A stretch of 64,000 nt of DNA from Escherichia phage Ecwhy_1: the sequence record MH791411.1; one strand, given 5' to 3'. This document shows positions 3,941-58,019 of this stretch, one piece after another (positions within the stretch are counted from its first letter, which is position 1; each line of letters starts with the position of its first letter). Below the pieces are notes generated by a model that was not told the DNA's origin, ran no database searches, and was given only the letters and a program-made list of their open reading frames with translations. Both the position numbers and the translations under genes were made by a program.

Positions 3941-4164
3941 GATTTTATTCCTTAATATACCAGGGAGAACCATTCCCCCTCTCGATATAAAACATTATAC
4001 TTGATTCTAAGTACAATGCAAGTACTTTTTTAAAAATAGTTTTCAGTACTGAATACTTATATAATAGATACACTTCCGCACCCTATGGGTCAGTGAGTTA
4101 TCTCTCAATGGATATATAATAGCAAAGGGACTGACCGGAGTCAATCCCTTTTTTTAATCTTTTT

Positions 4165-5620: not shown

Positions 5621-5647
5621 TAAAAAAGGCGGGAACTGATCCCGCCG
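5621..5647 (-). terminator. intrinsic terminator
   Basis: Hairpin GGCGGGATCAGTTCCCGCC + TTTTTTAT on - strand. Confidence 0.6.
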
Positions 5648-6841: not shown

Positions 6842-7117
6842 TTAAGTATTGTAAATGTCGTGAATAGTGATAAAGTTTTTACGACCGTAAACATGTAAAT
6901 CAGTATCAATGTAGTGCTTATCAAGTACATCCTCGACGCTTAAAGACGTGTCGTGAATATCTTCATAAAATTGTGGATCAACAATCGTGCTTAAGTCATC
7001 TGGCGTTAACTTATCGTTAAGGCATTGAACCGCCTGGATATCTGCTTCACGTTTCCATTGTTCCAGATTAGTAGTCAGTACTTGCTCGATTTCGTTAGCT
7101 GTAAGTAAAGTCCGCAT
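6842..7117 (-). CDS. hypothetical protein (91 aa)
   Basis: ORF; SD AAGGAAAC; tandem promoters with long conserved leader upstream. Confidence 0.6.
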   Translation of the reverse strand: MRTLLTANEIEQVLTTNLEQWKREADIQAVQCLNDKLTPDDLSTIVDPQFYEDIHDTSLSVEDVLDKHYIDTDLHVYGRKNFITIHDIYNT

Positions 7118-7185
7118 TTTAATGTTTCCTTATCAGTGGTTGATGTAAGTATTATACTCGTTTACTTTCTATTGTCAAACTATTT

Positions 7186-7262
7186 TATCAGGGGAGTTTT
7201 TCGTATGTCTTACTCCTGGACTACTTAACGGGGTTACTTATTTCGTTCCCCGTCCTGATGTA
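7186..7262 (-). promoter_or_regulatory. conserved ~75-nt structured leader, copy 1
   Basis: Near-identical to 18400-18478, related to 14990-15060. Confidence 0.5.
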
Positions 7263-7432
7263 AAACATTATACTTGATTCTAAGTACAATGCAAGTACTT
7301 TTTTAAAAATAGTTTTCAGTACTAGCCACCAGCAAACAATAGATACATTTATGCACCCTGTGGGCTAATTTGTTTCTATGCGTATATAATAGCAAAGGGA
7401 CTGACCGGAGTCAATCCCTTTTTCAAATATTT

Positions 7433-11211: not shown

Positions 11212-11663
11212 GATTTGTTTCCTTATTACCAGGGGAAACCGTTTCCCCCTCTCGATGTAAAACATTATACGCTTATTGAGATAGTTTGCAAGTACTTTCT
11301 ACAAATACTTTTAAAATAGTTTTCAGTACTCAATACTCATATAATAGATACACTTATGCACCCTGTGGGCTAGTGAGCTATCTCTCAATGAATATATAAT
11401 AGCAAAATGGCTGACCGGAGTCAACCACTTTTTTCATTTATTTTTAGCTTTTAGAATCGCCGCCTTTCGCGTCATGCCTTGCTTGATGTATTCTTGTACT
11501 TTCGCTTTACGTGCATTCGCTTTATTTGCTTTCGTAAATGCCGAACAACTTTTATAGTTTAAACCTGTTGGATTCATTTAAATCACCATAAAGAATAGAT
11601 AGGTTACTAACAACGCCGCGATCAATGCACCGACCAGGGCCGAACTATAGTAAGCTAATGTTT

Positions 11664-14401: not shown

Positions 14402-14430
14402 CAAAAAAGCCCACCGTTTAAGGTGGGCTA
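14402..14430 (-). terminator. intrinsic terminator
   Basis: Hairpin AGCCCACC-TTAAAC-GGTGGGCT + TTTTTTGT on - strand. Confidence 0.65.
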
Positions 14431-14450: not shown

Positions 14451-14933
14451 TTATGCTTCAACTTTGCGATGAGATTCGATCCATTCCTCGCGAGTCATAC
14501 CGCTGGCGTTAATCGCGTCCAGTACTACCGCAATGCAGTTACCACGCACCGGAATCAGATATTCTTCCCCGTTGTCCAGTACTACCGCTACGCGTTCCTG
14601 AATCCATTTTTTGGCTTTTACTTCTGGCTTGTCTTCCCCATACTTAACCGCCAGGGCTTTTTGTGCCATCTCTGTAACTACTTCCAGATCCAATCCAACT
14701 ACTGCCGCCTGAATACTTTCGATTGTTGCTTGTAGTTCTGCTTCACGGGCCGCCTTTGCCGCTTCAATTTCTGCCGCTTTATTTGCTTGTAGTTCTTTCG
14801 CAGTACTGTACGCGATGTTAAAATTATTGCGTACCGCTTTCATGGTATCGTTATCCAGTTCAGCCAGGATCTCAGCCGCGACGTTAGTTTCATTTGCTAC
14901 CAGTGCTTTGATGAATGATTTTACATTAGCCAT
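14451..14933 (-). CDS. hypothetical Ala/Glu-rich protein (160 aa)
   Basis: Trimmed to MANVKS start; SD GAGGA; long structured leader; terminator downstream. Confidence 0.6.
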   Translation of the reverse strand: MANVKSFIKALVANETNVAAEILAELDNDTMKAVRNNFNIAYSTAKELQANKAAEIEAAKAAREAELQATIESIQAAVVGLDLEVVTEMAQKALAVKYGEDKPEVKAKKWIQERVAVVLDNGEEYLIPVRGNCIAVVLDAINASGMTREEWIESHRKVEA

Positions 14934-14989
14934 TTTATAAATCCTCAATTAAAGTTTAGTTTACGTTTATTAGTGTATCAAAGTTTTCT

Positions 14990-15060
14990 CGACGTGTCCA
15001 GTTTTTCGTTCGACTTACTGGCGGTCTACTTAGTGCTCCCCGTCTTGATGTAATACATTC
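14990..15060 (-). promoter_or_regulatory. conserved structured leader, copy 2 (diverged)
   Basis: Shares ACATCAAGACGGGGA..AAGTA..CGAAAAACT with copies 1 and 3. Confidence 0.4.
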
Positions 15061-15130: not shown

Positions 15131-15160
15131 ACAAAAACAAAAAAGCCCACCAGGTGGGCT
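15131..15160 (-). terminator. intrinsic terminator
   Basis: Hairpin AGCCCACCTGGTGGGCT + T-run on - strand. Confidence 0.6.
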
Positions 15161-16148: not shown

Positions 16149-16290
16149 TGACAAGTGCATCCAGTACTGGCATAATTACTACATCAAGACGAAACAGTCA
16201 CTAACCCACCGGGTGCCGAGATCCGTCTATTAAATGATTCAGTACTGAAAAAGTAACGGGGAGTTATTATCTCCCCGTGTTGTTATTTTG
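16149..16290 (+). ncRNA. candidate small RNA: + strand promoter plus about 100 nt ending at a bidirectional hairpin
   Basis: TTGACA (16149)-N17-CATAAT; leader ACATCAAGACGAAACAGTCACTAACCCACCGGGTGC; hairpin GGGGAG..CTCCCC at 16256-16278 + T-rich; no ORF. Confidence 0.35.
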
Positions 16291-17721: not shown

Positions 17722-18333
17722 TTAATATTCGATTGATTCCACTACGCCATCAATAACATTGAATTGATACTCGTTACCCTCAATCAGTGCCGTAATGTTT
17801 TCAGTAGTGAATTGATCCTCATATGCATTCTCTAAATCACGGTACAACTTGCGGGACAATTCACGAATAGTTTCAGTGAGTAGTTCCTCAAGCTCATTAA
17901 CTAACGTTTCTTGTTTTGCGGTTAAATCAGTGTAAGCCGATTCAATGTACCCGCTTACAGTATTCTCATGCGAGTAGTGGGAGTGCGAACGTTTTACACT
18001 CATCGCCAAATCATCTTCATTCAGCAAGTGACGGATTGAGCGATACTTAGTTAATGCTCTTACCTTGCGTAAAAACTTCACTGCGTCAACGTGGTCAGTA
18101 CTGATTGATGCACCGTCACCCTGGGACCAAAAACCACTGAATTGTATTTCAGCGTCATTAATGCCATATTCCGGTAGTACTGTTTCTTTATAGTATTCAA
18201 TTTCACTTTCAGAAAAATAATTGTCGTTTGAGTTTTTTTCACGTTCCCGAACCAGTTCGATAGCTGACGTTTGTTGTTCTGCGTTCAATTCAGAAAAAGC
18301 CATAACATAAGTAGTAGTAGTGATAGTTTTCAT
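17722..18333 (-). CDS. hypothetical acidic protein (203 aa)
   Basis: ORF; SD GAGGGTTAC; tandem promoters with long leader. Confidence 0.65.
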   Translation of the reverse strand: MKTITTTTYVMAFSELNAEQQTSAIELVREREKNSNDNYFSESEIEYYKETVLPEYGINDAEIQFSGFWSQGDGASISTDHVDAVKFLRKVRALTKYRSIRHLLNEDDLAMSVKRSHSHYSHENTVSGYIESAYTDLTAKQETLVNELEELLTETIRELSRKLYRDLENAYEDQFTTENITALIEGNEYQFNVIDGVVESIEY

Positions 18334-18399
18334 TTTGTAACCCTCATTCAGTAGTTGATGTAAGTATTATACGCTTTTAAAAACATTTGTCAAACTATT

Positions 18400-18478
18400 T
18401 TATCAGGGGAGTTTTTCGTGTGCCTTACTCCTGGGCTACTTAACGGGAAGTTACTTATTTCGTTCCCCGTCCTGATGT
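18400..18478 (-). promoter_or_regulatory. conserved structured leader, copy 3
   Basis: Near-identical to 7186-7262. Confidence 0.5.
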
Positions 18479-18557
18479 AAAACATTATACGCCTTTAAAC
18501 ATAGTTTGCAAGTACTTTTTAAAAATAGTTTTCAGTACTGAATAGTAAAAAAAAGTA

Positions 18558-18650
18558 TTGACAGCATTATCAAGTACTGGTATAATATACCCCATGACAA
18601 CAGCTAACCCACCGGGTGCACAATTGTAACTATACTAAACTAATTTTTCT
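18558..18650 (+). ncRNA. candidate small/antisense RNA from a + strand promoter
   Basis: TTGACA-N17-TATAAT then AACCCACCGGGTGCAC; convergent with a - strand promoter at about 18700-18735. Confidence 0.3.
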
Positions 18651-18760
18651 ATAGATACACTCCCGCACCCTATGGGCTACGGCTTATCTGCCAATGAATA
18701 CATTATGCCAGTACTGACAAAATAAGTCAATACCGGCAATTGTAAAGATTTGTAAACTGC

Positions 18761-20490: not shown

Positions 20491-20600
20491 TTGACTTGAT
20501 CCTGAAAAAGCGTATAATTACTACATAGACGCGAGAAAGCGGATACCCCAGGGGGTGGGAAGATCCGTCCAAAATTCAAGATATAAAAAAAGGATACACT
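20491..20600 (+). ncRNA. candidate + strand transcript in the non-coding region
   Basis: TTGACT-N16-TATAAT; leader with CCCCAGGGGGTGGG and GATCCGTCC. Confidence 0.3.
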
Positions 20601-20706
20601 CCCGCACCCTAGCAGGTAAACGCACTTTCTCAGTACTGAAATATAGTACCATAGTCCGGCCCAGGATAGCAAGCAAATTAATTAAAACTTTTTTGCTTCC
20701 AGGGTA

Positions 20707-20800
20707 TTGCTTTATTTTTCCAGTACTGTATAATAGTTCCATCAAGTCGAGAAAGACTCAAGCCCACCGGGTGCATAGTTACGCCCAAAATTCAGTACTG
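20707..20800 (+). ncRNA. candidate + strand transcript in the non-coding region
   Basis: TTGCTT..TGTATAAT (extended -10); leader CCATCAAGTCGAGAAAGACTCAAGCCCACCGGGTGC. Confidence 0.3.
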
Positions 20801-20954
20801 AAAAAATTTTTAAAAATATCCGGCCAGGCCGTTGACATTGCCCCCAGTTTATAAGATAATGATTCCAGATTCAGAAAAATCTAACACCAGATACTGCGGG
20901 GAAACTATCCCCACGCGGTAGGGGAACTATTGGAAAAAACAAAATAAAATTTTG

Positions 20955-21145
20955 ATTTAGCCGTCTATACTTCCAGACGTGTAACCATCTAGCCGTTTAG
21001 CCGTCCAAACGTCTAGCCATCCAGCCATCCAGAAATCTAGCCGTTTAGCCGTCTAGATGGATAGCCATCTTTACTTCCAGACTTCTGGAGGGCTAGACAT
21101 ATCTACGCCCAAAATCCATCCAGGGTAACTACGCCCAAAATCCGT
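20955..21145. repeat. iteron-like cluster of short direct and inverted repeats
   Basis: About 10 copies of TAGCCGT/TAGCCAT in about 120 bp; CTACGCCCAAAATCC twice; palindromes CCAGA..TCTGG, GATGG..CCATC. Confidence 0.5.
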
Positions 21146-36652: not shown

Positions 36653-37840
36653 ATGTTACCTTTTGCAAGAATGGTTAAGTACGGGAATAAAGTCATTCCA
36701 TATGTTCCCAATTTTACTAAATTAGTCACCCCAGCAGTTGGTTATTCATTTACATGCACAATGCTGCTTGATGTAAATGGATCAGTGTGGGCTATGGGTC
36801 TTCAGAATGCAGGAATTTTTGGGTTAGGTAATACTACACAGGTTACTGAATGGACAAAAATATATAACAATGTTAAAGATTTTTGGTGCAGCACGGGGAA
36901 TGGTTTTTGTCTAATACGAACAAATGATGATAGATTCTTTTATAGTGGTTTAGATAAATGGCTAGGTAACAATACAACAAATACTGTAACAACATTCACT
37001 GAATGTACGAGTTATTTTACACAATTTGGTATTTCAAAAATCAAAGAAATATATGTAGGTCTTGATTATGCTTTGATTTTAGGTACTGATAATAGTTTAT
37101 ATTTGTTAGGTGATAATAAAAATTCAAAGTTTGGTTTAAACACTGCATCATATTTTAATAAATTTACATTTTTAGTCGATAATGTTAAAAAATTCTGTTC
37201 ATCCATCACACCATCTAACTGGATTATTAAACTAGATAATACAATATGGCGTACTGGGACAACATCTCATGGAACGTTGGGAAATGGAGTTCAAAACACA
37301 TATATATTTCCTTGGGTTCAATATAAGGGCACACCTGTTACCGAAGCTATAGACGTTTTTTGTAGTGCGAGTTATATTGGTATTATAACTAAAGGTACAC
37401 CAGAATCATGTCCTATGTATACACTAGGCTATCAAGCTGATGGTCAGTTGGGTAATAATACTACAGCAGGGGGTTATAAATTAACGCCAACATTATCGAA
37501 AACCGTTCCAGATGATAGTGAATTCATTCGAATTGAAAACATCTCATCCCGTGGTCTGGTATATTATAGCTCTGGTAAAATTTATAGTACTGGTTATAAT
37601 AACAATGGTCAGTTGGCAAATAATACTAAAATCAATTCTGGTTCATTTGTTGAAGCAATTTTACCTAATGGTGTTAACTTTAAGAAAAGTGAATCACTTG
37701 TAGCTGGGAACGATGCAACGTTGTATATGTACATTAATAATAAATTATACTACGCGGGGAAATCTCCTGATAATATTTCAGCAAGTAGTTCGTCTGTCAT
37801 GAAAGAATTCCCACTTCCAACAATTAATGCCAGTACTTGA
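36653..37840 (+). CDS. RCC1-like repeat protein, paralog 9 (395 aa)
   Basis: MLPFARMVKYGN; SD AAAGGAGG. Confidence 0.75.
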   Translation: MLPFARMVKYGNKVIPYVPNFTKLVTPAVGYSFTCTMLLDVNGSVWAMGLQNAGIFGLGNTTQVTEWTKIYNNVKDFWCSTGNGFCLIRTNDDRFFYSGLDKWLGNNTTNTVTTFTECTSYFTQFGISKIKEIYVGLDYALILGTDNSLYLLGDNKNSKFGLNTASYFNKFTFLVDNVKKFCSSITPSNWIIKLDNTIWRTGTTSHGTLGNGVQNTYIFPWVQYKGTPVTEAIDVFCSASYIGIITKGTPESCPMYTLGYQADGQLGNNTTAGGYKLTPTLSKTVPDDSEFIRIENISSRGLVYYSSGKIYSTGYNNNGQLANNTKINSGSFVEAILPNGVNFKKSESLVAGNDATLYMYINNKLYYAGKSPDNISASSSSVMKEFPLPTINAST

Positions 37841-37892
37841 TACTGGCTTTTCTTTTTGTATTAAATATAGTATAATGAATAAAGGAGGGAAT

Positions 37893-39044
37893 ATGTTACC
37901 TTTTGCAAGAATGGTTAAGTACGGGAATATTGCACCAGTTCCTGTAGTTCCTACAATAAAAGATTTTAAGATTGGATTTTCACATGAAGTGTTATTGGAC
38001 AGTGCAGGTGATGTATGGGGTATTGGATACAATACAGATGGACAGTTGGGATTTCTGGATGCTAACACAAATTCAATAGGAATGTGGTCTAAGATACATG
38101 AGAATGTTAGATTAATTGGCGTTACTGCCAATTATACTGTAGTTGTTACAAATGATAATAGAATACTTTACGCCGGAAATAACTTAATTTCTAGTACTAC
38201 AACGCTTGGGTGGAACGATATAACGTCCAGTATGGGAGAGGTTGCAGTGGATAGTATAGATACATTATATTGCACAGATGGAATGATGCATATTAAAACT
38301 GCTGATGGCTCTTTATATGCATATGGACGTAATATGAACGCGAACGCTGGAGTTACAGGCGTTTCTGGCGTTATTAGTGTTGCAACTAAAGTTAGTGGTT
38401 TACCATCGGCAGTGAAGGATATACGATATACGTTTAGTTATGGTTCAGTACTATGCCAATTTGATACCACTTCGGTATATGGATGGGGAAGAAATGTCAA
38501 TGGTGAATTAGGTCAGGGGAATGCAGCCGCAGTTCCTGCCCCATACCTATTGGCGGGAGCTTCTATTGTTATAGGTACTTCTTATAATGCTACTGCCATT
38601 GTTTCTGGTACTGGAACGTTAGTTACATGTGGTGGACAAAATAATGGTCAGTTAGGTAATGGTATTACTACTGCTGGTAATGTATACATATATGGTGCTA
38701 GGTCATACCCTGGCGATCTTAATAATATAAGAAGTCCAGTAGATTGTAGTACAACTTATACTTCCGCATTTATGAGTACAGATGGTATATATTACACGGG
38801 TTCGAACCGAAGTGTTTTTGGTGGTGCGAGTGGTTCTGCTACTGTTGCATTATATACTAAATGTAGTGATTTGCCAATATTATATTCCAATATAACTCAG
38901 TGGGGTAGTGGTACTATTGGTGGGGCGATATGTAGCAGAACTGAATTATATCAGTGTGGTACAGGTAGATACATTGCCGGAGATGGACAGAACGCAACTA
39001 GGTATGGGTTTAGAAAGACACCATTACCTTGGGATGTTTATTGA
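37893..39044 (+). CDS. RCC1-like repeat protein, paralog 10 (383 aa)
   Basis: MLPFARMVKYGN; SD AAAGGAGGG. Confidence 0.75.
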   Translation: MLPFARMVKYGNIAPVPVVPTIKDFKIGFSHEVLLDSAGDVWGIGYNTDGQLGFLDANTNSIGMWSKIHENVRLIGVTANYTVVVTNDNRILYAGNNLISSTTTLGWNDITSSMGEVAVDSIDTLYCTDGMMHIKTADGSLYAYGRNMNANAGVTGVSGVISVATKVSGLPSAVKDIRYTFSYGSVLCQFDTTSVYGWGRNVNGELGQGNAAAVPAPYLLAGASIVIGTSYNATAIVSGTGTLVTCGGQNNGQLGNGITTAGNVYIYGARSYPGDLNNIRSPVDCSTTYTSAFMSTDGIYYTGSNRSVFGGASGSATVALYTKCSDLPILYSNITQWGSGTIGGAICSRTELYQCGTGRYIAGDGQNATRYGFRKTPLPWDVY

Positions 39045-39114
39045 AATAATGCCAGTACTCTGTACTGGCTTTTCTTTTTGATTAAATATAGTATAAAGAA
39101 TAAAGGAGGGAATT

Positions 39115-40251
39115 ATGTTACCTTTTGCAAGAATGGTTAAGTACGGGAATATAAAAGTAAAGAGTACTATACAAAAAGTTATACTTGGTGGTGGTGGTCA
39201 ATGTGTGGTAACATTACTCAGTGATGGTAGAGTGTATGGACGTGGTTACAACACTACACATGGGTTAGGTACTGGTACAACAACATTCGTAAGTGATTGG
39301 GTATTAATGGGAGATAATATTGTTGATATCCATTCAAATGGTGTTACTGGAACATTCCTTATTACCAAAGAAAATAGAATATTGTATTCTGGTTTTGCGA
39401 CACCAATCAATGGCACAACATCACATTATACACGTTTCACTGATTTAACATCAACTGTATTTGCTGCGGTGGATGTTAGTAATATTAAAACAATTACGGG
39501 AAATGGTAATGTTACAATGGTTCTTTTGAATGATGGTTCACTTTATGGGAGTGGTGCAAATATAGGGGTTATAGGTAATGGTAGTAACGTTGCATTATCA
39601 ACACAAACATATGTGACTAATGATGTGCGTGATGTGAAAACATATCCATCAATGAACACTATAACAAAAAATAATAATCAAATATTGGCTAGTGGTATTT
39701 TATACCAAGGCGTGAACGGTACAAATTCATCAATAAACACGTCTTCATATACATTACTGTACACATTACCGAGTTCTGATTGTTTTCAATTTGCATTTGA
39801 TACATATACATTTGGATATGTTGACCCTAGTACTAACACTTCTTATATAAGAGGTATACCAATAAATGGTTCATTAGGTAATGGCGTTACTAATAATACA
39901 GCAGTTACAACATGGGTTACTAAAGTTTGGAATACACCAATTGATAGTTCTATACCTAATAAATCATATACAACTAACCATGTCTCCTTGTTCAATGATG
40001 GAAACTTATGGACAACTGGTGCATCTAGTGTAGGTTATTCCAATGGTACAAATAGCACAACAGCTAATACATGGACCAGTTCATCTAATTTACCATTCAA
40101 CACTAATAACATAACAGACTATGCTTTTGGTGGTAGTATTACTGTAGTGGTAATCGACTACAGGACTATGTACATACTAGCTAACAACGCCATTGCTGGT
40201 ACTGCTACGACAACTTATAAATTTGAGCCATATAATTCTCCACCAGTTTAA
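39115..40251 (+). CDS. RCC1-like repeat protein, paralog 11 (378 aa)
   Basis: MLPFARMVKYGN; SD AAAGGAGGG; -10 variant TATAAAG. Confidence 0.75.
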   Translation: MLPFARMVKYGNIKVKSTIQKVILGGGGQCVVTLLSDGRVYGRGYNTTHGLGTGTTTFVSDWVLMGDNIVDIHSNGVTGTFLITKENRILYSGFATPINGTTSHYTRFTDLTSTVFAAVDVSNIKTITGNGNVTMVLLNDGSLYGSGANIGVIGNGSNVALSTQTYVTNDVRDVKTYPSMNTITKNNNQILASGILYQGVNGTNSSINTSSYTLLYTLPSSDCFQFAFDTYTFGYVDPSTNTSYIRGIPINGSLGNGVTNNTAVTTWVTKVWNTPIDSSIPNKSYTTNHVSLFNDGNLWTTGASSVGYSNGTNSTTANTWTSSSNLPFNTNNITDYAFGGSITVVVIDYRTMYILANNAIAGTATTTYKFEPYNSPPV

Positions 40252-40283
40252 TATAATGCCAGTACTATGTACTGGCTTTTCTT

Positions 40284-40934
40284 TTACATATTATATAATG
40301 TGAATGCAGTCACTTTACCAGTTGTTGTTAGTTCATTATAAAGATACTCCAAGATTCTCGCACACTCTAAGTATATCTCGATATCATCATGAATAAGTGA
40401 GTACTGAAATAGCTGTTCTTCAGGTAATTTGTATTGACTTCCTTTTAATGAATTGAGAATATCTTTCACATCATCAAGTACTGGGTAAAGTACGAAATCT
40501 TCATCATATTTTGAAGCAATAAATTCAAATCCACCACCATCAGTACTAGATATACCAATCAGTACTTTATCAATCAAGTTAATGTTTATATAACGGTTGT
40601 GATTTGGGTGAATTGAAATCTCAAACATAAGAGTACTGTTACAATCAACATCAATATACAAATATACATCATTGAATTTATAAGTTAAGCAACCGTACTC
40701 AAGAAAATCAGAGCAAATAATTGATGAGTTTTTTCTCGTCTCTGCGTAATGCATCTTGATATTCTTTTCACGCATAAGTAATTCGAACTTTGCACTAAAC
40801 TTGCCACCAGCAAGATAGTTAGTATTAGGACGTTTGTAACTTGCAACTGGTCGGTGGGATGATGTAAAGTATTTTTTTGTGAATCGTTTATGTTTAGTGA
40901 AATATTCTTGATAGAACTTACTTCTTTTATTCAT
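40284..40934 (-). CDS. hypothetical protein (216 aa), opposite strand inside the RCC1-like array
   Basis: ORF; convergent with paralog 11 and sharing its terminator hairpin. Confidence 0.6.
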   Translation of the reverse strand: MNKRSKFYQEYFTKHKRFTKKYFTSSHRPVASYKRPNTNYLAGGKFSAKFELLMREKNIKMHYAETRKNSSIICSDFLEYGCLTYKFNDVYLYIDVDCNSTLMFEISIHPNHNRYININLIDKVLIGISSTDGGGFEFIASKYDEDFVLYPVLDDVKDILNSLKGSQYKLPEEQLFQYSLIHDDIEIYLECARILEYLYNELTTTGKVTAFTLYNM

Positions 40935-41011
40935 GAGTACCTCAATTAAATCGCTGTAAAATTGTACATTATAAAATGATTAAATAAAGTATAACACAAG
41001 GAGATTTTATC

Positions 41012-42136
41012 ATGTTACCTTTCGTATTGTTATTTGATTATGGGAACGAAAAACAAGAAAGTTCTTATGATGTTAGTGTATATGGAAACAATAACTACAT
41101 TTTAAATAAACAAACTGGAAACCTTTTTGCATCCGGTGCTGCGGCATTCATGGGTGATAACACAGTTAAGTATTATATTACCCAAATAGAATCAAATGTT
41201 CATAGCTGTGAGATAGGTTTCCTATCATCATGGATAATTAAGAAGGACAAAACTGTTTTCATTTTAGGAAACAAAAGCAGTATAGGATTAACTGGTTCGA
41301 CAACATCATGGTTCGAAATTACAAATTTATTTTCTGCTGTTCCTGAAATATGGGACAACCTATTTGAATGTAAAGTTCAATTGGGATATAACTGTATACG
41401 TGTTATGACACCACTAGGATCAATCTATGCGATTGGTACAAACACTTATGGTGCATTGGGTACTGGTACTACATCCTCATCAACTTCGTTCGTTAAAAGT
41501 GGTGCTGTGGATGCTGTACGCATGGAATCAACAGAACGTTCAGTGTTCTATCAAAACAGTTCTGGACAATGGTTTGGATGTGGTGATAACACATATGGTA
41601 TACTAGGTCTAGGAACTACCGCGAGTCGTGTAAACTCATACACCGCACCAGTATGGACTAATGCAGAAGCTGTTAGCTTCTCTAACCGTGGGATCATATA
41701 CAGCCTCAATGGTACTCTATACTCATGTGGTGACAAAGTTAATGGTCAGCTAGGGGATGGATATACACAAAGCATAGACGCTGCCAGGAGCACACCATAC
41801 ACCATAGGAACCGCATTCCAAATTGGTAAGGCAATAACATCAGCTACACAAGCATCAGCCAACGTATTCATTGGTAAAGATAATAAGTTCTATGGTACTG
41901 GTAGTATTGCTGCTGGTATAAATGGTAGTGCTAGTGCTGCATTAAGTAAAGTTACTGCGTTATCAGCATCACTACCACCTGACATTACATACAATGATAT
42001 TATAACATTTAATACAGGGACCGTAACTTTTATTCAAGCAAAAGGACAACTATATTATGTTGGTAGAAGAACTTACATAGATAATAGTTCAGACGTTACC
42101 ACACAGTTCAGTGTAATTGGTGGCTTAGATAATTAA
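41012..42136 (+). CDS. RCC1-like repeat protein, divergent paralog 12 (374 aa)
   Basis: MLPFVLLFDYGN; blocks GTNTYGALGTG, GDNTYGILGLG, VNGQLGDGY; SD AAGGAG. Confidence 0.7.
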   Translation: MLPFVLLFDYGNEKQESSYDVSVYGNNNYILNKQTGNLFASGAAAFMGDNTVKYYITQIESNVHSCEIGFLSSWIIKKDKTVFILGNKSSIGLTGSTTSWFEITNLFSAVPEIWDNLFECKVQLGYNCIRVMTPLGSIYAIGTNTYGALGTGTTSSSTSFVKSGAVDAVRMESTERSVFYQNSSGQWFGCGDNTYGILGLGTTASRVNSYTAPVWTNAEAVSFSNRGIIYSLNGTLYSCGDKVNGQLGDGYTQSIDAARSTPYTIGTAFQIGKAITSATQASANVFIGKDNKFYGTGSIAAGINGSASAALSKVTALSASLPPDITYNDIITFNTGTVTFIQAKGQLYYVGRRTYIDNSSDVTTQFSVIGGLDN

Positions 42137-45450: not shown

Positions 45451-45517
45451 TTCGTTATCCTCATCAATTGATGAAATAATTATAGCAAAAAGGGCTGACC
45501 TAAGTCAACCCTTTTGT

Positions 45518-46861
45518 TTAGTTTTGTTTCACCCCACCCCATTTTTCATAGATGGCAATAATTTTATCTATGTTGTTTGGTGTAGTTGTTTCTGTATACC
45601 CATCCCCCACCTCTCTTTTAGTGAAGATTGGACAAAACTGCCTTTTACATTCATTTTCTGCGTTAGTACAATTTCCAACACTTGGAAAGCGATACGAATA
45701 CATTGGTTTTATATCAAAAATACTATTCAAATTTTGTTTTGAAACTCGATTGCCCTTTACTGTTTCTTTTCCATATTTCACACCAACACATACCCCGCTG
45801 TCCATTATTACATGAATATATGTATATGTTGCACACTTTCCGGCATCATATGGGTTACCTTGATGTTTATCTAAAAAGTTCGTTATAGATGTTTTATATG
45901 GTAAATTATTACTACTCCCCATCAACATTATGTTAGTTTTCTGATTTGGTTTTTCTGGATTGTGTTCAAACCCTATAAATTTATCATTTGAATTACGAAA
46001 TTCTAATTCCTTTTTTATACGATATACATACTGTGATTTAGTCCAGTGGAAATTAGTTGAACACCTACACGGTATAATATGTGCAGATGATAAATCATTT
46101 AGTGTTGCGTAGAATACACCATCACATACACCAGCTTGTACATATTCATCATAACTACACTTCGCACACACAAATTTGTATAAACGATAATTTCCCCTCA
46201 TCTTTTCTGATGGTTGAATTGTAAATTCATTAGTTAAATGACCATTATTATTAATTTTATCTATATGATATTGTAGTGGTTTAGAGTTAGTTTTAGTTAT
46301 TGACTCTTTTTTACATTTCATACAACCAAATGTTTTATTTTTTGATGTTAACGTATTAATATTAGAAATCGAACAAAACACATTATGTTTGTTACAATAA
46401 ATTAGTATCTCAGTGTTGGTAGCATTAATTTTATCATAAGAACCAAGACCCAATAATGTATATATCCCACCACTGAATTTTTTGAATTGTTCAATAATAG
46501 TCATAATATGTTGTGTATTTGTTTTCTTTGTCCACTTTGTTGCAGATTTCTTTTTAGTAATATGTATGGAGTTTATTCCCAATCCATATATTAAACCATT
46601 CGGGACATCATATTTTTTAAGATAGTGTTTACTATTATTGTAAATGAAATATCCCAAAATCGAGTTATCATTATTGGAAAAATCATCTTGGGGTAATTTA
46701 TTAAAATCCATATGGTTGAAATCTTTTGTTGGATGGCGTTCTGATAAAATAATACGAGTTATTTTATCAGAATCGACCATTTTTGAACAAATTGTAATTC
46801 TAACATCTTGTATGAAATTCAATTTGGTACATTTAAAAGGTACTTTAATATCAACACGCAT
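45518..46861 (-). CDS. hypothetical Cys-rich protein (447 aa)
   Basis: ORF; SD AAGGAG; several C-x2-C pairs (CMKCKK, CAKCS). Confidence 0.6.
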   Translation of the reverse strand: MRVDIKVPFKCTKLNFIQDVRITICSKMVDSDKITRIILSERHPTKDFNHMDFNKLPQDDFSNNDNSILGYFIYNNSKHYLKKYDVPNGLIYGLGINSIHITKKKSATKWTKKTNTQHIMTIIEQFKKFSGGIYTLLGLGSYDKINATNTEILIYCNKHNVFCSISNINTLTSKNKTFGCMKCKKESITKTNSKPLQYHIDKINNNGHLTNEFTIQPSEKMRGNYRLYKFVCAKCSYDEYVQAGVCDGVFYATLNDLSSAHIIPCRCSTNFHWTKSQYVYRIKKELEFRNSNDKFIGFEHNPEKPNQKTNIMLMGSSNNLPYKTSITNFLDKHQGNPYDAGKCATYTYIHVIMDSGVCVGVKYGKETVKGNRVSKQNLNSIFDIKPMYSYRFPSVGNCTNAENECKRQFCPIFTKREVGDGYTETTTPNNIDKIIAIYEKWGGVKQN

Positions 46862-47090
46862 TACTTAAAACTCCTTTCCAGTACTGAACCCGTCCAGCAC
46901 CATTAATCTTAGCTTGAATCTTATCTTTTTCGACAAGACCTTCTTTGTAATCGATGGAAGTATTATCGCACTGAATTACATCTAAGTCAAGTACTTCTTG
47001 TGTACTTAATGAAGTATTGTCTGCAATTTGTTGTAATGTAATGATATCAGTACCGAAGAATTCTGCTAAACGTATAAAAGATAGTTTCAT
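46851..47090 (-). CDS. hypothetical protein (79 aa)
   Basis: ORF; SD AGAGGCAATAC. Confidence 0.55.
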   Translation of the reverse strand: MKLSFIRLAEFFGTDIITLQQIADNTSLSTQEVLDLDVIQCDNTSIDYKEGLVEKDKIQAKINGAGRVQYWKGVLSNAC

Positions 47091-47210
47091 GTATTGCCTC
47101 TTGAGATGATGAAATAATTATAGCAAAAAGGGCTGACCTAAGTCAACCCTGTTTTAAAGTTTTTTTAATATGTTGATAACGACGGTATGTATTCACCATC
47201 TGTCATCATT

Positions 47211-47948
47211 TCACACGATATCCCCATATGGTTTAATTGTTTTTAGACACCAAGGAATAGGAATCCCATATTCAGAACCCCATAAATCTGAATAAGAATT
47301 ATAGAGTTCACCAAGTTCTTTCATCTGTTCATAGTTGTTCAACAACTGATATTGAAAGTCTAAGCCTTCATCCCCAACTGGTACAAACTTATTACCAAGT
47401 AGGTTATTTTTTACTTTACCTATATGTATGCCATGTGTCGCATCAGATATCGTCCCATCACTTTCTAACCAAAACGATCCATCATATGATCCACTACCTC
47501 TACGAATATAAATTCTTTCTCCATATGGAACAATAGCTGGAGTTGTCATATCATGCAATGCATTATTGTACTTATTATCTTTATCAAAAGTATTAATACT
47601 ACCTTCAGAAAAAGATTTATTATTAGAAAGAATAAAGTATGCCATATCATTTATTAATTGTGATGGAACCCATCCATGCGAATCACCATCAGAACCTACG
47701 TTGTAATAAGTAATTTCGTTTCCTAATTTATCAACTGTAATATCAATATCATATACAGGAAATGACCCACTATAACGTTCATAACCATGAGCATCGAATG
47801 TTAAATATCCATTATTATCTAATATCATACTATAAGTACTATTATTAATAACAATAGTAAGTTCTTTTTGTTTTCCACATTTTAAGGTAGTTCGCGAATA
47901 AGTTAATTCATAATATGTTTTGTATAAGTAATGTTCTTCTATCAACAT
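47211..47948 (-). CDS. hypothetical protein (245 aa)
   Basis: ORF; SD AAGGATATTTAA. Confidence 0.6.
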   Translation of the reverse strand: MLIEEHYLYKTYYELTYSRTTLKCGKQKELTIVINNSTYSMILDNNGYLTFDAHGYERYSGSFPVYDIDITVDKLGNEITYYNVGSDGDSHGWVPSQLINDMAYFILSNNKSFSEGSINTFDKDNKYNNALHDMTTPAIVPYGERIYIRRGSGSYDGSFWLESDGTISDATHGIHIGKVKNNLLGNKFVPVGDEGLDFQYQLLNNYEQMKELGELYNSYSDLWGSEYGIPIPWCLKTIKPYGDIV

Positions 47949-48146
47949 TTAAATATCCTTGTTGGATAATCATAACGTTAGTTCGTTAATGATTATTATA
48001 TAAAGGATGATAACTAACTATTTTTCAAGTTAATATATTCACCCCATAAATTATATATATTGTTTTCAACACAATCATCATCGCTTAATTCTATCATTGA
48101 CGATATAAGTACTGAATAGTTCATTACACATCTGTCACTACATCAA

Positions 48147-48341
48147 CTAATCCTCACTGAAAACAACAATAAGGAATGACACGAACAATGCCGCATAACA
48201 AGGAGCTATCTTCATGTACCACGGGACTTCATAATACCATGTACCCAATTCATCCCACGAAAAGAGTATACTCACACCGAAGCCGATTAGCGATAGTACA
48301 ATAAAAGAAATCCAGAAACGCTTTGAATATACTAATAACAT
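48147..48341 (-). CDS. small membrane protein (64 aa)
   Basis: Two hydrophobic segments; SD AAAGGAAC. Confidence 0.5.
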   Translation of the reverse strand: MLLVYSKRFWISFIVLSLIGFGVSILFSWDELGTWYYEVPWYMKIAPCYAALFVSFLIVVFSED

Positions 48342-48379
48342 GTTATGTTCCTTTGTGTGACCGAAGTTAACCCTTACCT

Positions 48380-48895
48380 TTAATAATTATTCATTTCATC
48401 TTTGATTTGTTCTTCAATTTCGTCGAACATATCAGTACTAGATTCTATATTACTACTTACGTCCTGCATATCTTTAACGTACTGTGGGCGTTCAACGTCA
48501 GTAAATTTATACCACATAGGCTTCATATGGAGCTTCTCAATCAAACGCTCACGAGACATTTTAATCTCTGACTCCGATGGTACGTAGTCATTACAAAACT
48601 CAGCAGGGAAGCCGCTAATGTCGTTTACTTCAGTGTTTTGAATCTTCATCCCACGACGCAAACATTCGTTAACAATATCAATATGACGCTTCTGTAAGTA
48701 CAATAACTTGTTGTAGAAGAATGTTACATGACCTGAACCTAACAGGTAAGTACTGTTAATTTTGAAATCACGGACTCGCTTACGTGCTTGAACATGTTTT
48801 TGTACAGCACCAAACACACGTGGGAGTTCACGATATTCAGCCATCAGATGTTGGTCAGCAAGTTCTTTAACGTGTACTAAGTTAATGCGTGTCAT
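48380..48895 (-). CDS. denV: pyrimidine dimer DNA glycosylase (T4 endonuclease V homolog), 171 aa
   Basis: N-terminal ~130 aa aligns from memory to T4 DenV ([42 protein letters not shown]); acidic C-terminal extension; SD GAGAGGATG. Confidence 0.85.
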
Positions 48896-48936
48896 GTATT
48901 CATCCTCTCGTTTCGATGAAATGATTATAGCAAAAA

Positions 48937-48956
48937 GGGCTGACCGAAGTCAACCC
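48937..48956 (-). terminator. terminator hairpin carrying the -35 of the next promoter (example; 8 copies between 45491 and 60069)
   Basis: - strand GGGTTGACTTCGGTCAGCCC + TTTTTGCTATAAT: stem contains TTGACT, T-run runs into TATAAT. Confidence 0.55.
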
Positions 48957-49237
48957 GTTTTGAAAGGATTTTTTAATGGTTTTCGTACTGTATGTATTTT
49001 GCTTTGTAGTTCTTCTTCCCACAAAACATTTATATTATAAACTAAATCATTGTAGTCACTGTTCACAAAGATAAAATCATACTTCTCATTAAAAGTATGA
49101 GAAATCAATTGCATTTTCATAAGTATTATTGAACTTTTAAATTTATATGTTTCTTTTTCTTCTCCAGTTTTTGAACTTTGTATATTTTTTATAAATTCCA
49201 TGAATTCATCATTGGTCATTGTTTCAGCATCCAACAA
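48950..49237 (-). CDS. hypothetical protein (95 aa)
   Basis: ORF; weak SD. Confidence 0.45.
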   Translation of the reverse strand: MLDAETMTNDEFMEFIKNIQSSKTGEEKETYKFKSSIILMKMQLISHTFNEKYDFIFVNSDYNDLVYNINVLWEEELQSKIHTVRKPLKNPFKTG

Positions 49238-49496
49238 TACCCAACTTCACAATCTCATACCCATCCAAATATCCATATGAACACTCAGGCGTTTCATAAG
49301 ATGAACCATCATGGATGCCCTGGCATTGACTTTTGGAATTCTCAAGCAATCGTTGCAGTACTGATACGTCATCAAGAACGTAATACAAGTTAGCATATAG
49401 GTCCGTTACAATACAGTACTCCAACATGTCAAATGTATCAATCGAAATTTCAACCTTAGCAAATTGTTTCTTTTCTTTATTATACAGTGCGTACAT
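49224..49496 (-). CDS. hypothetical protein (90 aa)
   Basis: Trimmed to MYALYNK start with SD GGAG. Confidence 0.5.
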   Translation of the reverse strand: MYALYNKEKKQFAKVEISIDTFDMLEYCIVTDLYANLYYVLDDVSVLQRLLENSKSQCQGIHDGSSYETPECSYGYLDGYEIVKLGIVGC

Positions 49497-49497
49497 A

Positions 49498-49869
49498 TTA
49501 ATCTCCATAATCAAGTTTAACTAACTTACCACCCAGATACCCAAAGTTTTCTGGCTTCGCATCTGAATAGAAGAAGTCAGTACTCAACTCTGAATCCAAT
49601 GCTAAAGCACACAACTCCACCCAAAATAAACCCCTATGTTGTACTGGCTTACAACGTTTCTGTACAGTTACTAGTCCAGTACATGATGACCACAACGTAG
49701 GGCAGATACCACTATCACTACGCTTGGAGTACTGCATCCAAGAACGTTCATTGAGGTTAGCTATCATCCCTGTTAAGAATAGCTTCCAACTTTTAAAGGT
49801 TGGAATCTTGATAGCATATTCCCCAATGAGTATGACAGTTCGTGTTGCACCTTTCAAATCTATATTCAT
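49498..49869 (-). CDS. short kinase-like protein (123 aa)
   Basis: Motifs EYAIKIP (Lys), DAKPENFG (catalytic-loop-like), KLDYGD (DFG-like), ending right after DYG; no clear SD. Confidence 0.45.
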   Translation of the reverse strand: MNIDLKGATRTVILIGEYAIKIPTFKSWKLFLTGMIANLNERSWMQYSKRSDSGICPTLWSSCTGLVTVQKRCKPVQHRGLFWVELCALALDSELSTDFFYSDAKPENFGYLGGKLVKLDYGD

Positions 49870-49878
49870 ATTTTTTAA

Positions 49879-50130
49879 TTAGAAGAACACAAACCAAGTC
49901 CAGAATAAATTCCACACTACAAATAAAGACATAGTGGTTTTATGTACAATATCAGCAGTACTGGTCCATCCTCCACCGTGTCCTATTCCATTTATGAATA
50001 GAACTAAGAACAAGATACCATTTACTACAATAGTACATAGTAAGTACACAAACACATTCCATGCAAGTTCAGGGGATACTAACGTAAATGGTAAAACAAT
50101 TAGTAGTATTAGAACTAATAAAATTTTCAT
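49879..50130 (-). CDS. small membrane protein (83 aa)
   Basis: Hydrophobic N-terminus; SD GTGAGG. Confidence 0.55.
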   Translation of the reverse strand: MKILLVLILLIVLPFTLVSPELAWNVFVYLLCTIVVNGILFLVLFINGIGHGGGWTSTADIVHKTTMSLFVVWNLFWTWFVFF

Positions 50131-50158
50131 TTATCGCCTCACTTAATTAACGTGACAA

Positions 50159-50335
50159 TTAGTACGAATCAGATTCCCAGTACTCGATTGCTTCTTTCAG
50201 CAATTCTTTAGCACGTTGTTTTGCAATGCGAGCGGGTAACAGATATGTGTACATTAACTGACGCTTCACTTCATTCAGTGAAAGCTGTTCATGGTACAGT
50301 GCATCCATCAGTCGATTACGAGTACGTAGTTTCAT
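50159..50335 (-). CDS. hypothetical small protein (58 aa, not in track)
   Basis: SD AAGGATAAC; replaces overlapping + strand track ORF 50221-50424. Confidence 0.4.
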   Translation of the reverse strand: MKLRTRNRLMDALYHEQLSLNEVKRQLMYTYLLPARIAKQRAKELLKEAIEYWESDSY

Positions 50336-50346
50336 ATAAGTTATCC

Positions 50347-50901
50347 TTATTTCAAAGAATCATAGTAAGCAGTGTCAAAGATTGGAGTCATAATAACATA
50401 GTCAATACGGTCAATGTAAGTTGAACTCCACATTTCTGGTTTGTCATAAAATTGACGCTCGCGTTCATTCATACGAGTCAGTACTTCTTCCAATTTACTA
50501 CGTGAAGCCATCAATGTATTACGCGATCCATAAGTGAAGTACTCAGTCCATTGATATTCATATTCAGTACTGATAGATTGAATAGTACCATCTTTGAAAT
50601 GAGCTAAGGCATATCCTTTCTCTACAAAGTTATCAGGTGGAAGAACACTATCTGGATTAGTTTTCAATGCTTTGGTTAACTTTTCTTTAATTTCAGTTAA
50701 CGTGCATACTGAACGAATGTTCTTCAGGTTTGATACTTGAAAATCACTGTACTTTCCAAAGAAAAATACACGCCAATCTTTAGGTTCATTATCAGATACG
50801 GTAATATTCGGATGATGGGCGAGTAAACGAAGAAGGCCAGCTTTGTGACCGTTAATGTAGATCTCATGGATGTGGTTAGCAGTTTTCTTAAAAGTAATCA
50901 T
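50347..50901 (-). CDS. hypothetical protein (184 aa)
   Basis: ORF; SD GAGGAATTG; TTGACA-N17-TATAAT + hairpin GGGGATGAACTTCTCATCCCC. Confidence 0.65.
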   Translation of the reverse strand: MITFKKTANHIHEIYINGHKAGLLRLLAHHPNITVSDNEPKDWRVFFFGKYSDFQVSNLKNIRSVCTLTEIKEKLTKALKTNPDSVLPPDNFVEKGYALAHFKDGTIQSISTEYEYQWTEYFTYGSRNTLMASRSKLEEVLTRMNERERQFYDKPEMWSSTYIDRIDYVIMTPIFDTAYYDSLK

Positions 50902-50977
50902 GACAATTCCTCGATTGTGGGGATGAGAAGTTCATCCCCTTGATAAACATTATACAGTACTGAATGAGTTTGTCAAC

Positions 50978-51358
50978 TCAAAATAAATTCATTTCATGTG
51001 CGTATTGTGGTTCAAGATGCGATAAGTTTTTGAAGCTTTCTTTCAACTCAGCATCATCTACATACACCGTGCCTGGTACATTCCCCATAGTGAAACCTAC
51101 CCACACAGTCATGTCACCAGTCCCTAAGCGTGGCATTGATAGCGAACCATCAGGTGAAACATCAAACGCTACACTGAAGTCATCAGTAACAACGTCAGAA
51201 CCATTTTCGAGAATAATACATCCACTATCTTTAAGCTTCTGAATGTGGATAGCAGCCTCTACAGCACGTTTGAAGTTATAGTAAGACTCTTTATCCTCAA
51301 ACATTGATTGTTTAATCAGACGCTTGTTTAGCTCGGTTACTTTGTGCATTTGACGCAT
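50978..51358 (-). CDS. hypothetical protein (126 aa)
   Basis: ORF. Confidence 0.5.
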   Translation of the reverse strand: MRQMHKVTELNKRLIKQSMFEDKESYYNFKRAVEAAIHIQKLKDSGCIILENGSDVVTDDFSVAFDVSPDGSLSMPRLGTGDMTVWVGFTMGNVPGTVYVDDAELKESFKNLSHLEPQYAHEMNLF

Positions 51359-51615
51359 TACTTATCCATCTCCCACAGTTGTAGAATTTCATAAGAGCCT
51401 GGTGGTGCAGGATTCCTGATCTCAGGGAATTGAGTACTTTTAGGATTTCCACCAGCATTAAATTCGTCAAGTAATGATTCCAGTTCGCGACGATCCTGAA
51501 CAACATAAACACAATCACCTGAACCTTCTTCGAGAATCATTTCACTTCCTGCACAATCCCATACTATTGAGATACATAGAATCTCTTTTGTATTTTTATT
51601 ACGCAATGCAAACAT
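51358..51615 (-). CDS. hypothetical protein (85 aa)
   Basis: ORF; SD GGGGATTG; preferred over 51312-51518. Confidence 0.5.
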   Translation of the reverse strand: MFALRNKNTKEILCISIVWDCAGSEMILEEGSGDCVYVVQDRRELESLLDEFNAGGNPKSTQFPEIRNPAPPGSYEILQLWEMDK

Positions 51616-51624
51616 AGCAATCCC

Positions 51625-51993
51625 CTATCGATTTGGCATTTTATCTCGTAATTTCACAAGATAATCAATCACGGTACATCCTGAAATAAAGGTAATATAA
51701 GTACTGAAAAATCCTACCAGAATAAAGGCAACAAGCGTACTCCCATTTGGTTCTTCAGCTTTAATACCAATGATACCATCAGATGCAGTGAAAAATGTAG
51801 ACATAAACGTTAGACAGATGTACATCACTAATAAGAATTCATGTTCTAATGACGGATAAAAACGGTCAAAGAGTTTATAAAATTTAAAGTACAGTAGGAG
51901 TATACCAACAAAGGCATAGAAAGTAAACAGTGTTGTTATGATATATGATATTAAATTTAAATTATACATCTCAACGCTCCGGTAGATTATCAC
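51625..51993 (-). CDS. small polytopic membrane protein, second tandem cluster (122 aa)
   Basis: Hydrophobic helices; C-terminus KLRDKMPNR. Confidence 0.6.
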   Translation of the reverse strand: MIIYRSVEMYNLNLISYIITTLFTFYAFVGILLLYFKFYKLFDRFYPSLEHEFLLVMYICLTFMSTFFTASDGIIGIKAEEPNGSTLVAFILVGFFSTYITFISGCTVIDYLVKLRDKMPNR

Positions 51994-52318
51994 GTAATGT
52001 TTTGATTCGATTATACAATTTCATTGCTACATTTCCAAATAAACCAAAACCCATTACTAAAATGTATGCGATGAACATAGTAATAATCACAATAGTACCT
52101 AGACTGTAATGTACTGCACTAATACCCATTATTGTTTCTACAATGATGTGAGCAACAGAAATAATCAAAAGTACTACTACAATTGGATGATTTGGATACA
52201 TTCGGTTAAACAATGTTTTGTACTTAAAGAAGTACAGTACTCCACCAAATAAGAAGTACACAATGTAGATTGATGCAATAGCATAAGCAAAAGCATTAGT
52301 GTAGAAAATCATTATCAA
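51971..52318 (-). CDS. small polytopic membrane protein, second tandem cluster (115 aa)
   Basis: Hydrophobic helices; C-terminus TLRDNLPER. Confidence 0.6.
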   Translation of the reverse strand: MIMIFYTNAFAYAIASIYIVYFLFGGVLYFFKYKTLFNRMYPNHPIVVVLLIISVAHIIVETIMGISAVHYSLGTIVIITMFIAYILVMGFGLFGNVAMKLYNRIKTLRDNLPER

Positions 52319-52321
52319 TCC

Positions 52322-52660: not shown

Positions 52661-52670
52661 TTTTTTACCC

Positions 52671-53371: not shown

Positions 53372-53437
53372 GTTTGCCTCCAGTAGTTGATGAAATGATT
53401 ATAGCAAAAAGGGCCGACCGAAGTCAACCCTTTTCTT

Positions 53438-53788: not shown

Positions 53789-53798
53789 TGCAACCGTG

Positions 53799-54050: not shown

Positions 54051-54121
54051 TGCATTACCTCTTATAAAACCCTCTACAATATTTACAAAAAAAGGTTGAC
54101 CGAAGTCAACCTTTTAAATGT

Positions 54122-55633: not shown

Positions 55634-55714
55634 ATTGTTTATTCTCTATGACTATATTTATAGTATAAAGAAAAGGTTGACCGAAGTCAACCCTATTTTC
55701 ACTGTACTATACCA

Positions 55715-57419: not shown

Positions 57420-57432
57420 ACTACATCTCCAG

Positions 57433-58005: not shown

Positions 58006-58019
58006 TAATTAAACCCCAC

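Follow-up and report, generated by a model that had tools for sequence, protein, structure and literature searches.

A probable folded leader RNA motif, apparently undescribed, between tandem early promoters of an Asteriusvirus-type jumbo coliphage and other phages

Three early leaders of the window and their promoters

The window, the whole stretch of 64,000 nucleotides of Escherichia phage Ecwhy_1 (MH791411.1) analysed here, is 99.9% identical across 3 kb to Escherichia phage fEgEco12 and 93-98% identical to 121Q, PBECO4, G17 and their relatives; its source is an Asteriusvirus-type jumbo coliphage, a group in which relatives measure ~350-385 kb. The minus strand carries the genes of the first ~21 kb, and ~30 sigma70-type promoters stand ahead of small genes in this early region (800-21500, minus strand), following a pattern that comprises TTGACA or TTGCAA, 16-17 nt, TATAAT, 7 nt and then ATC. 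Nearly all of these promoters place a short hairpin, GGGGAGAA-N3-4-TTCTCCCC, at ~+6, followed by a Shine-Dalgarno sequence and ATG, as exemplified by the ordinary early promoters at 3221, 6567, 8129, 10855, 11894, 16582 and 19750 (minus strand). At several early promoters the initial transcribed sequence, ATCGAGAGGG, is that of T7 A1.

Three loci of this region share a composite anatomy comprising (i) a sigma70-type promoter, P1; (ii) a conserved block of 62-75 nt running from the inferred transcription start, which is placed by promoter geometry and by register with T7 A1; and (iii) a second promoter, P2. A previous sequence-only reading had described three copies of a leader behind an extra upstream promoter, and all three are found on the minus strand, upstream of genes with ATG at 7117, 18333 and 14933, with P1 present at each; the conserved unit exceeds the leader so described, spanning from about the P1 -10 to the P2 -35. 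The downstream genes, called unrelated in that reading, fall into three different PHROG families, each of unknown function.

At copy A, P1 (7267-7294, minus strand, TTGCAT-16-TATAAT) places the putative +1 at the A at 7259, the first base of a long-form leader element of 73 nt (7187-7259, minus strand) with an MFE of -21 kcal/mol and a z score of -3.0. Its predicted fold, on the minus strand, comprises (i) a closing helix between AUCAGG (7254-7259) and CCUGAU (7187-7192); (ii) a first hairpin between ACGGGG (7248-7253) and CCCCGU (7228-7233); (iii) a single-stranded UAAGUAG (7221-7227); and (iv) a core hairpin in which GGAGU (7212-7216) pairs with ACUCC (7193-7197) around the loop AAGACAUACGAAAA (7198-7211). 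P2 (7151-7178, minus strand, TTGACA-16-TATAAT) agrees with the consensus at 12/12 positions and has its own leader without a 5' hairpin, and the gene behind it occupies 6842-7117 (minus strand, phrog_14947). Copy B, likewise on the minus strand throughout, displays the same arrangement, with P1 at 18484-18511 (TTGCAA-16-TATAAT), a putative +1 at the A at 18476, a long-form element of 75 nt (18402-18476; MFE -19.4, z -2.1), a predicted closing helix (18471-18476 with 18402-18407), a first hairpin that includes one G-U pair (18464-18470 with 18443-18449), UAAGUAG at 18436-18442, the core hairpin (18427-18431 with 18408-18412), P2 at 18366-18393 (TTGACA-16-TATAAT, 12/12 consensus) and the gene at 17722-18333 (phrog_5162). 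The two long copies had been called almost identical, and the 5' and 3' halves of the long leader each occur exactly twice on the minus strand (7233-7260 and 18450-18477; 7187-7204 and 18402-18419), against 0.00-0.03 matches expected by chance.

Copy C is the diverged one and carries a short form. Its P1 (15057-15084, minus strand, TTGACA-16-TAGAAT), directly downstream of an intrinsic terminator at 15144-15160, places the putative +1 at the A at 15049, and its leader element (14987-15049, minus strand, 63 nt) is without the first hairpin and without 17 nt relative to the long form. Alignment of the three intergenic regions confirms that it retains ACATCAAGACGGGGA, TAAGTAG, AGTAAG and ACGAAAAACT, as the earlier description of a divergent but recognisable third copy had implied. 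Here, on the minus strand, the closing helix would pair UC..GACG (within 15041-15049) with CGUC..GA (14987-14994), UAAGUAG lies at 15026-15032, and the core hairpin pairs CCAGU (15017-15021) with ACUGG (14998-15002) around the loop AAGUCGAACGAAAA; taken alone this fold is no stabler than that of shuffled sequences (z -0.46), and its support is comparative. A weak P2 (14953-14981, minus strand, TTGATA-17-TAAACT, 9/12 consensus) and the gene at 14451-14933 (minus strand, phrog_27871) follow. A covariance model of the core, run over the 64 kb window, returns only these three sites, at 60.4, 58.2 and 55.1 bits, with the next match at 10.8 bits; the three belong to the training set of the model, and the informative outcome is the absence of any further copy in the window.

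Several other features of the window are recorded here in their own right. The palindrome CAGTACTG occurs 68 times in the whole window against 0.9 expected (e.g. at 3694, 8108, 16561, 18533 and 20721), often within promoter spacers or a short way upstream of -35 boxes, and may be a regulator-binding or modification motif. A terminator-like hairpin, AAAGGGcTGACCgGAGTCAaCCCTTT, present at 7394-7421, 4124-4151 and 11404-11431 and in 13 copies within 45487-60083, contains a TTGACT -35 box followed by TATAAT or TATTAT, and would form a combined terminator and promoter unit. On the plus strand, 26848-41056 holds twelve tandem paralogous genes with a period of ~1.2 kb, each starting MLPF(V/A)R..DYGN and each with its own promoter and a GCCAGTACT...AGTACTGGC terminator. 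Also on the plus strand, 18558-18740 and 20491-20900 display consensus promoters that run counter to the genes, with G+C-rich hairpins and a common ACACTCCCGCACCCTA behind them; both are candidate small RNAs, in segments where ORFs and tRNAs are absent.

Fold, covariation and distribution of the motif

The core of the element comprises UAAGUAG and a short hairpin with the loop UAAGNCNNACGAAAA, and was compared in 21 distinct sequences that form an almost gap-free alignment, in which AGTAG, TAA and the loop C..A.GAA are invariant and the loop measures 14-17 nt. The stem sequences include (i) GGAGU/ACUCC in the long form; (ii) CCAGU/ACUGG in copy C and Munch; (iii) CCUG/CAGG in the T7 group; (iv) GCCUG/CAGGC in T3 and Hallingskeid; (v) ACCUG/CAGGU in Muenster; (vi) ACUUGU/ACAAGU in LTH01; and (vii) GCCU/AGGC in SALSA. 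Across the 21 sequences, 89.6% of the cells of the core hairpin are paired, compared with 35-48% when the partner is slid by 1-3 columns, and four pairs stay paired in every sequence. The sequence-only reading had named folding with covariation as one way to examine its leader, and the core hairpin does covary: three of its four pairs show double compensatory changes (CG/GC 15:6; CG/GC/UA 14:6:1; UA/AU 11:10), the covariation score is reached by none of 500 shuffles, and RNAalifold independently predicts the same four pairs.

When the segment between the inferred start and P2 is folded by minimum free energy, 12 of 13 homologues from jumbo phages, Vequintavirinae and Justusliebigvirus share one predicted topology, with helix sequences that differ. 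In this topology a closing helix joins the first nucleotides to the stretch immediately 3' of the core hairpin, and the rest consists of a first hairpin, which is optional, the single-stranded UAAGUAG junction and the core hairpin. The closing helix reads AUCAGG/CCUGAU, GACG/CGUC, GACGG/CCGUC, CGGC/GCCG, GCGGC/GUCGC or GCGACG/CGUUGC depending on the lineage, and its predicted beginning falls at +1 to +6 of the inferred transcript in every lineage of jumbo phages and Vequintavirinae. An alignment-free comparison of the first 14 nt with the 14 nt after the core hairpin finds it in 8/8 lineages, with a combined shuffle p of ~1e-4 for lineages that are not fully independent; a full-length MAFFT alignment was left out of the pair counts (its 3' helix arms are out of register). 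Among long-form copies the closing helix shows no change and the first hairpin differs only in G-C versus G-U pairs, so that neither helix covaries there and the evidence for both comes from the wider family. Two homologues resemble copy C in being no stabler than shuffled sequence. Concerning the strand, folding energies of the long form are about equal for antisense and sense and do not separate the two, but G-U pairs, found at the outer core pair in seven sequences and at other positions as well, would be A-C mismatches on the opposite strand, which favours a sense transcript. The copy in phage muut (1507-1596) has one extra G in its 5' G-run and one extra C in its 3' C-run relative to all other long-form copies, which could hint at a long-range GGGGG/CCCCC pairing in competition with the two hairpins, or could be a coincidence.

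The long form is present in 44 phage records at 88-100% identity, always intergenic between two promoters, including Asteriusvirus, Justusliebigvirus (EmilieFrey, muut, outra) and Vequintavirinae (A73, W70, A7_1, A5-4). Searches with the short form add LTH01 and UPEC06 (Vequintavirinae), the Erwinia jumbo phage Hallingskeid, the RaK2-like jumbo phages Munch, 7t3 and fENko-Kae01 and, unexpectedly, T7-like Yersinia phages (positions 553-587). With the Munch copy as query, 188 records are matched, typically ~500-600 bp from the left end in podoviruses; these include T3, T7M, phiYeO3-12, KP34-like Klebsiella phages and podoviruses of Serratia, Citrobacter and Aeromonas, in addition to the Klebsiella jumbo phages Muenster and OU509535. 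The core thus recurs in Justusliebigvirus, Vequintavirinae, RaK2-like jumbo phages, an Erwinia jumbo phage and T7/T3/KP34-like podoviruses, and the order promoter, element, promoter holds in every homologue inspected (T3, phiA1122, Munch, Hallingskeid, LTH01, Muenster, OU509535, EmilieFrey, muut and A73). This extension to T7, and the simpler 5' hairpin leaders with similar opening bases at nearly all early genes, are the two things that the sequence-only reading had missed. Pattern scans of IMG/VR add little diversity, returning only 121Q, phiA1122 and two contigs, of 40 kb and 366 kb, and a metagenome scan returns four loci, all Asteriusvirus-like. E. coli genomes and species-wide bacterial genome contigs contain no copy of the element.

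The T3 match (534-569) is flanked by the annotated promoters A1 (-10 at 467-472) and A2 (-35 at 572-577) and ends 3 nt before the A2 -35; in T7, the block between A1 and A2 reads GGATAAGTAGACAGCCTGATAAGTCGCACGAAAAACAGGTATTGACA in the published sequence. Across T7, T3, IME15, phiA1122 and the KP34-like KPV811, this block hardly varies, whereas the sequence on both sides of it has diverged. The T7/T3 A1-A2 spacer shares with the window loci the core sequence and hairpin, a strong promoter before it, whose transcript opens AUCGAGAGGG in both, and a second promoter after it. It differs in that a separate 5' hairpin comes first and the element starts ~45 nt from the beginning of the transcript, that the closing helix is not predicted, and that the core hairpin abuts the -35. 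T7-like phages have AAAAACAGG at about -46 to -38 of A2, with an A-tract at about -46 to -42 that may double as a proximal UP subsite of A2, and part of the conservation there could be exerted at the DNA level; upstream of T7 A3, a degenerate copy, ATAAGGTGAAACAAAACGG, occurs without the hairpin. In the T7-like loci, the hairpin preceding UAAGUAG has a loop, GUCAA, whose complement UUGAC is part of the A2 -35, and the corresponding pair in the 40 kb IMG/VR contig is GUCGGU/ACCGAC; a pseudoknot between hairpin loop and A2 -35 is a possible reading of these letters, resting on that single covarying case.

In genomes whose termini are defined, the element is always located close to the left end and directed inward, at ~0.55 kb in T3 and phiA1122, 3.6 kb in fENko-Kae01 (in the terminal repeat), 5.3 kb in Muenster (in a 20 kb terminal repeat) and 6.7 and 14.2 kb in the Asteriusvirus vB_Ec-M-J (in a 21.5 kb direct terminal repeat). 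This position and orientation assign it to the region that enters first and is transcribed by the host polymerase. In the window, an array of 8-nt units of the CGTCTAGC and CATCCAGC types (20962-21113) adjoins ~20909, where position 1 of the fEgEco12 record maps, and may relate to the genome terminus. The block of P1, element and P2 precedes at least five different genes among the window, 121Q, muut, EmilieFrey and A73: one copy in 121Q stands ahead of a gene starting MKHFTF, that of muut ahead of a homologue of the window gene 6842-7117, that of EmilieFrey ahead of a homologue of the gene which in the window follows the ordinary promoter 19750, and that of A73 ahead of yet another gene. The segment from the P1 -10 to the P2 -35 would accordingly be a unit that is inherited and shuffled between genes and between phage families.

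Comparison with known systems

The three leaders are true copies of one motif, probably folded as RNA and apparently undescribed, located between two tandem host-type early promoters. No Rfam 15 family reaches its gathering threshold anywhere in the window (0 matches), so that the Rfam search suggested in the sequence-only reading identifies no known family; at permissive thresholds 7100-7330 gives chance-level matches only (E 1.7-8.5), Rfam places nothing on the element in the T7-like, Munch, LTH01 and Muenster loci, and a tRNA/tmRNA scan finds none. Full-text literature searches yield no description of the element, and the T7 sequence appears in the papers so found only within promoter fragments, older subscription literature on T7 and T3 lying outside the search.

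Of the cis-regulatory RNA element proposed in the sequence-only reading, a conserved structured leader RNA independent of the downstream gene is supported by the covariation, the recurrent topology and the occurrence before at least five genes; the attenuator and processing-site roles suggested with it are not supported. An attenuator is unlikely in its classical form, given that a terminator scan finds none in 7187-7259, 18402-18476 and 14987-15049 and no helix has a U-tract, the element helices being followed by A-rich sequence (AUAAAAUAG, GAGAAAAC). An RNase III site of the R0.3 type in T7 requires an irregular duplex of ~20 bp or more, a length that the helices of the element, at 4-7 bp, do not approach. 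A coding role is argued against by length differences of 1-2 nt between copies (+2 nt between two window copies, +1 G and +1 C in muut) and by the lack of a conserved start codon, and a small protein-coding gene was rejected on these grounds.

Among early leader RNAs, the nut site of lambda resembles the element in its short hairpin and in GAAAA, which occurs in the loop of the element, but the loop of 14-17 nt differs from the GNRA-like boxB pentaloop, and boxA-like sequences (CGCUCUUUAACAA, up to 2 mismatches) give three matches, all far from the elements, where 3.3 are expected by chance; a lambda-type nut site was rejected. The closest functional analogue, compared by description, is the putL RNA of phage HK022, a ~70 nt leader with two stem-loops located just downstream of PL, which requires no protein factor and acts directly on the polymerase. 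Like putL, the element follows an early promoter, from the inferred +1, over 62-75 nt with two or three helices; it differs in its short helices of 4-7 bp, its large conserved loop and the second promoter behind it, put RNA having been described as two long stem-loops that adopt a V shape with a triplex. The PeSL cassettes of T4-type phages, which comprise sigma70-like early promoters, G-rich/C-rich stem-loops and small orphan genes subject to modular shuffling, are comparable as repeated composite cassettes that mark sites of gene exchange, the block of the element preceding at least five different genes, and the early region of the window is built likewise. On the other hand, the PeSL stem-loop is a terminator located upstream of the promoter, whereas the structures of the element lie downstream of P1, within the transcript and without a U-tract, and sequence similarity between the two is absent.

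Pairing of the first few transcript nucleotides, predicted here from an inferred start, is a likeness to ompA-type 5' stabilisers and to the simple 5' hairpins of the window, with which the long form also shares its opening bases; 5'-proximal structure is a general feature of early transcripts, since the ~30 other promoters also put a hairpin a few nucleotides from the start. The element differs from both in being a multi-helix domain with unpaired segments that are invariant across phage families, which a generic protective hairpin would not need. Further candidates were considered. For a UP element of the downstream promoter, with an A/T-rich tract expected about -40 to -60 from the start, the position suits T7-like phages, but a pure UP element is at odds, outside the T7 group, with a distance to the -35 that varies about tenfold, from ~5 to ~50 nt. 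Pairing of UAAGUA with a downstream UACUUA was rejected as a mechanism: it reduces to a match 47 nt downstream, ACTTAC between the P2 -10 and the start, which also occurs in T7 A1, and complementary matches to UAAGUA in coding starts are not conserved. A RegB/S1 site (GGAGRAYARAA) fits the long-form GGAGUAAGACA poorly, and the short and T7 forms are without GGAG; resemblances to hammerhead, preQ1 and tetraloop-receptor motifs, noticed by eye, were set aside, as the family does not conserve them.

Proposed role and alternative explanations

The reading that we favour, tentatively and a little short of an even chance, makes the element a structured domain at the 5' end of P1 transcripts that acts in cis, travels in a shuffled promoter cassette, and would protect the 5' end or dock a host factor. 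The P1 RNA would start at the A of AUCAGG or AUCAAG, and its first bases would pair 3' of the core hairpin, closing a two- or three-helix domain that would display two invariant single strands, UAAGUAG in the junction and UAAGNCNNACGAAAA in the loop of 14-17 nt. Acting in cis, the domain would sequester the 5' end and so could shield P1 transcripts from 5'-end-dependent decay by RppH and RNase E, enzymes that depend on unpaired 5' ends. Protection of the 5' end alone leaves the invariant unpaired bases unexplained; these may form a docking site for a factor that should be host-encoded, as the motif is common to phage families with very different genomes. P2, located 2-60 nt downstream, would make transcripts of the same gene that are free of the element, from which we infer that each gene could have two classes of mRNA with different fates.

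The main rival to this cis-acting 5' domain, drawn by analogy and in our view unlikely, is a put-like processive antiterminator, in which the nascent leader would bind its own RNA polymerase, rendering polymerases from P1 resistant to pauses and terminators and leaving those from P2 sensitive. The length, the fold of two to three helices and the position right after an early promoter all agree with what is described for HK022 putL, invariant unpaired bases would suit a specific RNA-protein interface, RNA polymerase is one host partner that all of these phages have in common, and intrinsic terminators do lie downstream of the units (14408-14429, 5628-5646 and 16256-16278); nevertheless, read-through is not obviously needed where almost every gene has its own promoter, and we know of no report of put-like activity from T7 A1, although its transcription in vitro has been studied intensively. 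The remaining readings are less likely. The conserved block invariably reaches the P2 -35, either ending at it or including it, which would suit a DNA-level upstream region of P2, comprising a UP-element-like A-tract and a factor-binding site that boost P2, with an incidental inverted repeat; AAAAACAGG upstream of A2 in T7-like phages indeed resembles a proximal UP subsite, the degenerate copy upstream of T7 A3 dispenses with the hairpin, and antisense folding energies are similar to sense. Such a role appears distinctly unlikely when the spacing is considered, the ACGAAAA tract lying ~5 nt from the -35 in T7-like phages, ~20 nt in the long form and ~50 nt in Munch and Hallingskeid, a variation unfit for a DNA element dependent on helical phase; moreover, stem bases that change yet stay complementary are unlike protein-binding sites, and the G-U pairs suit the sense strand only.

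Two further alternatives concern the fate of the leader itself. A P1 leader processed into a trans-acting small RNA or protein sponge, titrating or targeting a host component early in infection, would account for a motif conserved in unrelated phages, with invariant single strands that could serve as seeds, behind very strong promoters within a few kb of the first-entering genome end; we regard it as improbable, given that the 3' side holds neither a terminator nor a recognisable processing site, that BLAST at E<=1 finds nothing complementary or similar in E. coli genomes (short seeds would escape), and that the element always stands in cis with a gene. Most improbable of all would be a functionless passenger, the remnant of a standard leader and ribosome-binding site in a mobile promoter cassette spread by recombination between repeated promoters: its first 16 nt do resemble the standard leader (ACATCAGGACGGGGAA compared with ACATCGAGAGGGGGAA), the long-form CCAGGAGUAAG is similar to CCUGGAGUAAUGAAAAUG, the ribosome-binding site that serves the gene at 19071, and the cassette stands before different genes in 121Q, muut, EmilieFrey and A73, as shuffling of the PeSL type would give, but a decaying remnant would not hold loops invariant and stems compensatory across Autographiviridae, Vequintavirinae, Stephanstirmvirinae and jumbo phages.

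Beyond the cis-acting 5' domain proposed for the window, a broader and doubtful reading is that the element is a host-factor-binding leader RNA, the factor possibly being RNA polymerase as in put, in the first transcripts of T7-group podoviruses, rV5-like and phAPEC8-like myoviruses and RaK2/Asteriusvirus jumbo phages. If this were true, unrelated virulent enterobacterial phages would share a common RNA device to control the earliest transcripts made by the host polymerase near the entering end of the genome. The T7 A1-A2-A3 region is among the most used promoter regions, and a conserved, covarying RNA structure within it is apparently uncatalogued; if functional, the element would offer a compact, portable part for synthetic biology and phage engineering, and would show how very different virulent phages handle the first host-made transcripts, in terms of stability, elongation or host-factor capture. 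A promoter cassette exchanged between phage families bears, in addition, on the shuffling of early 'orphan' genes, which often serve in anti-defence.
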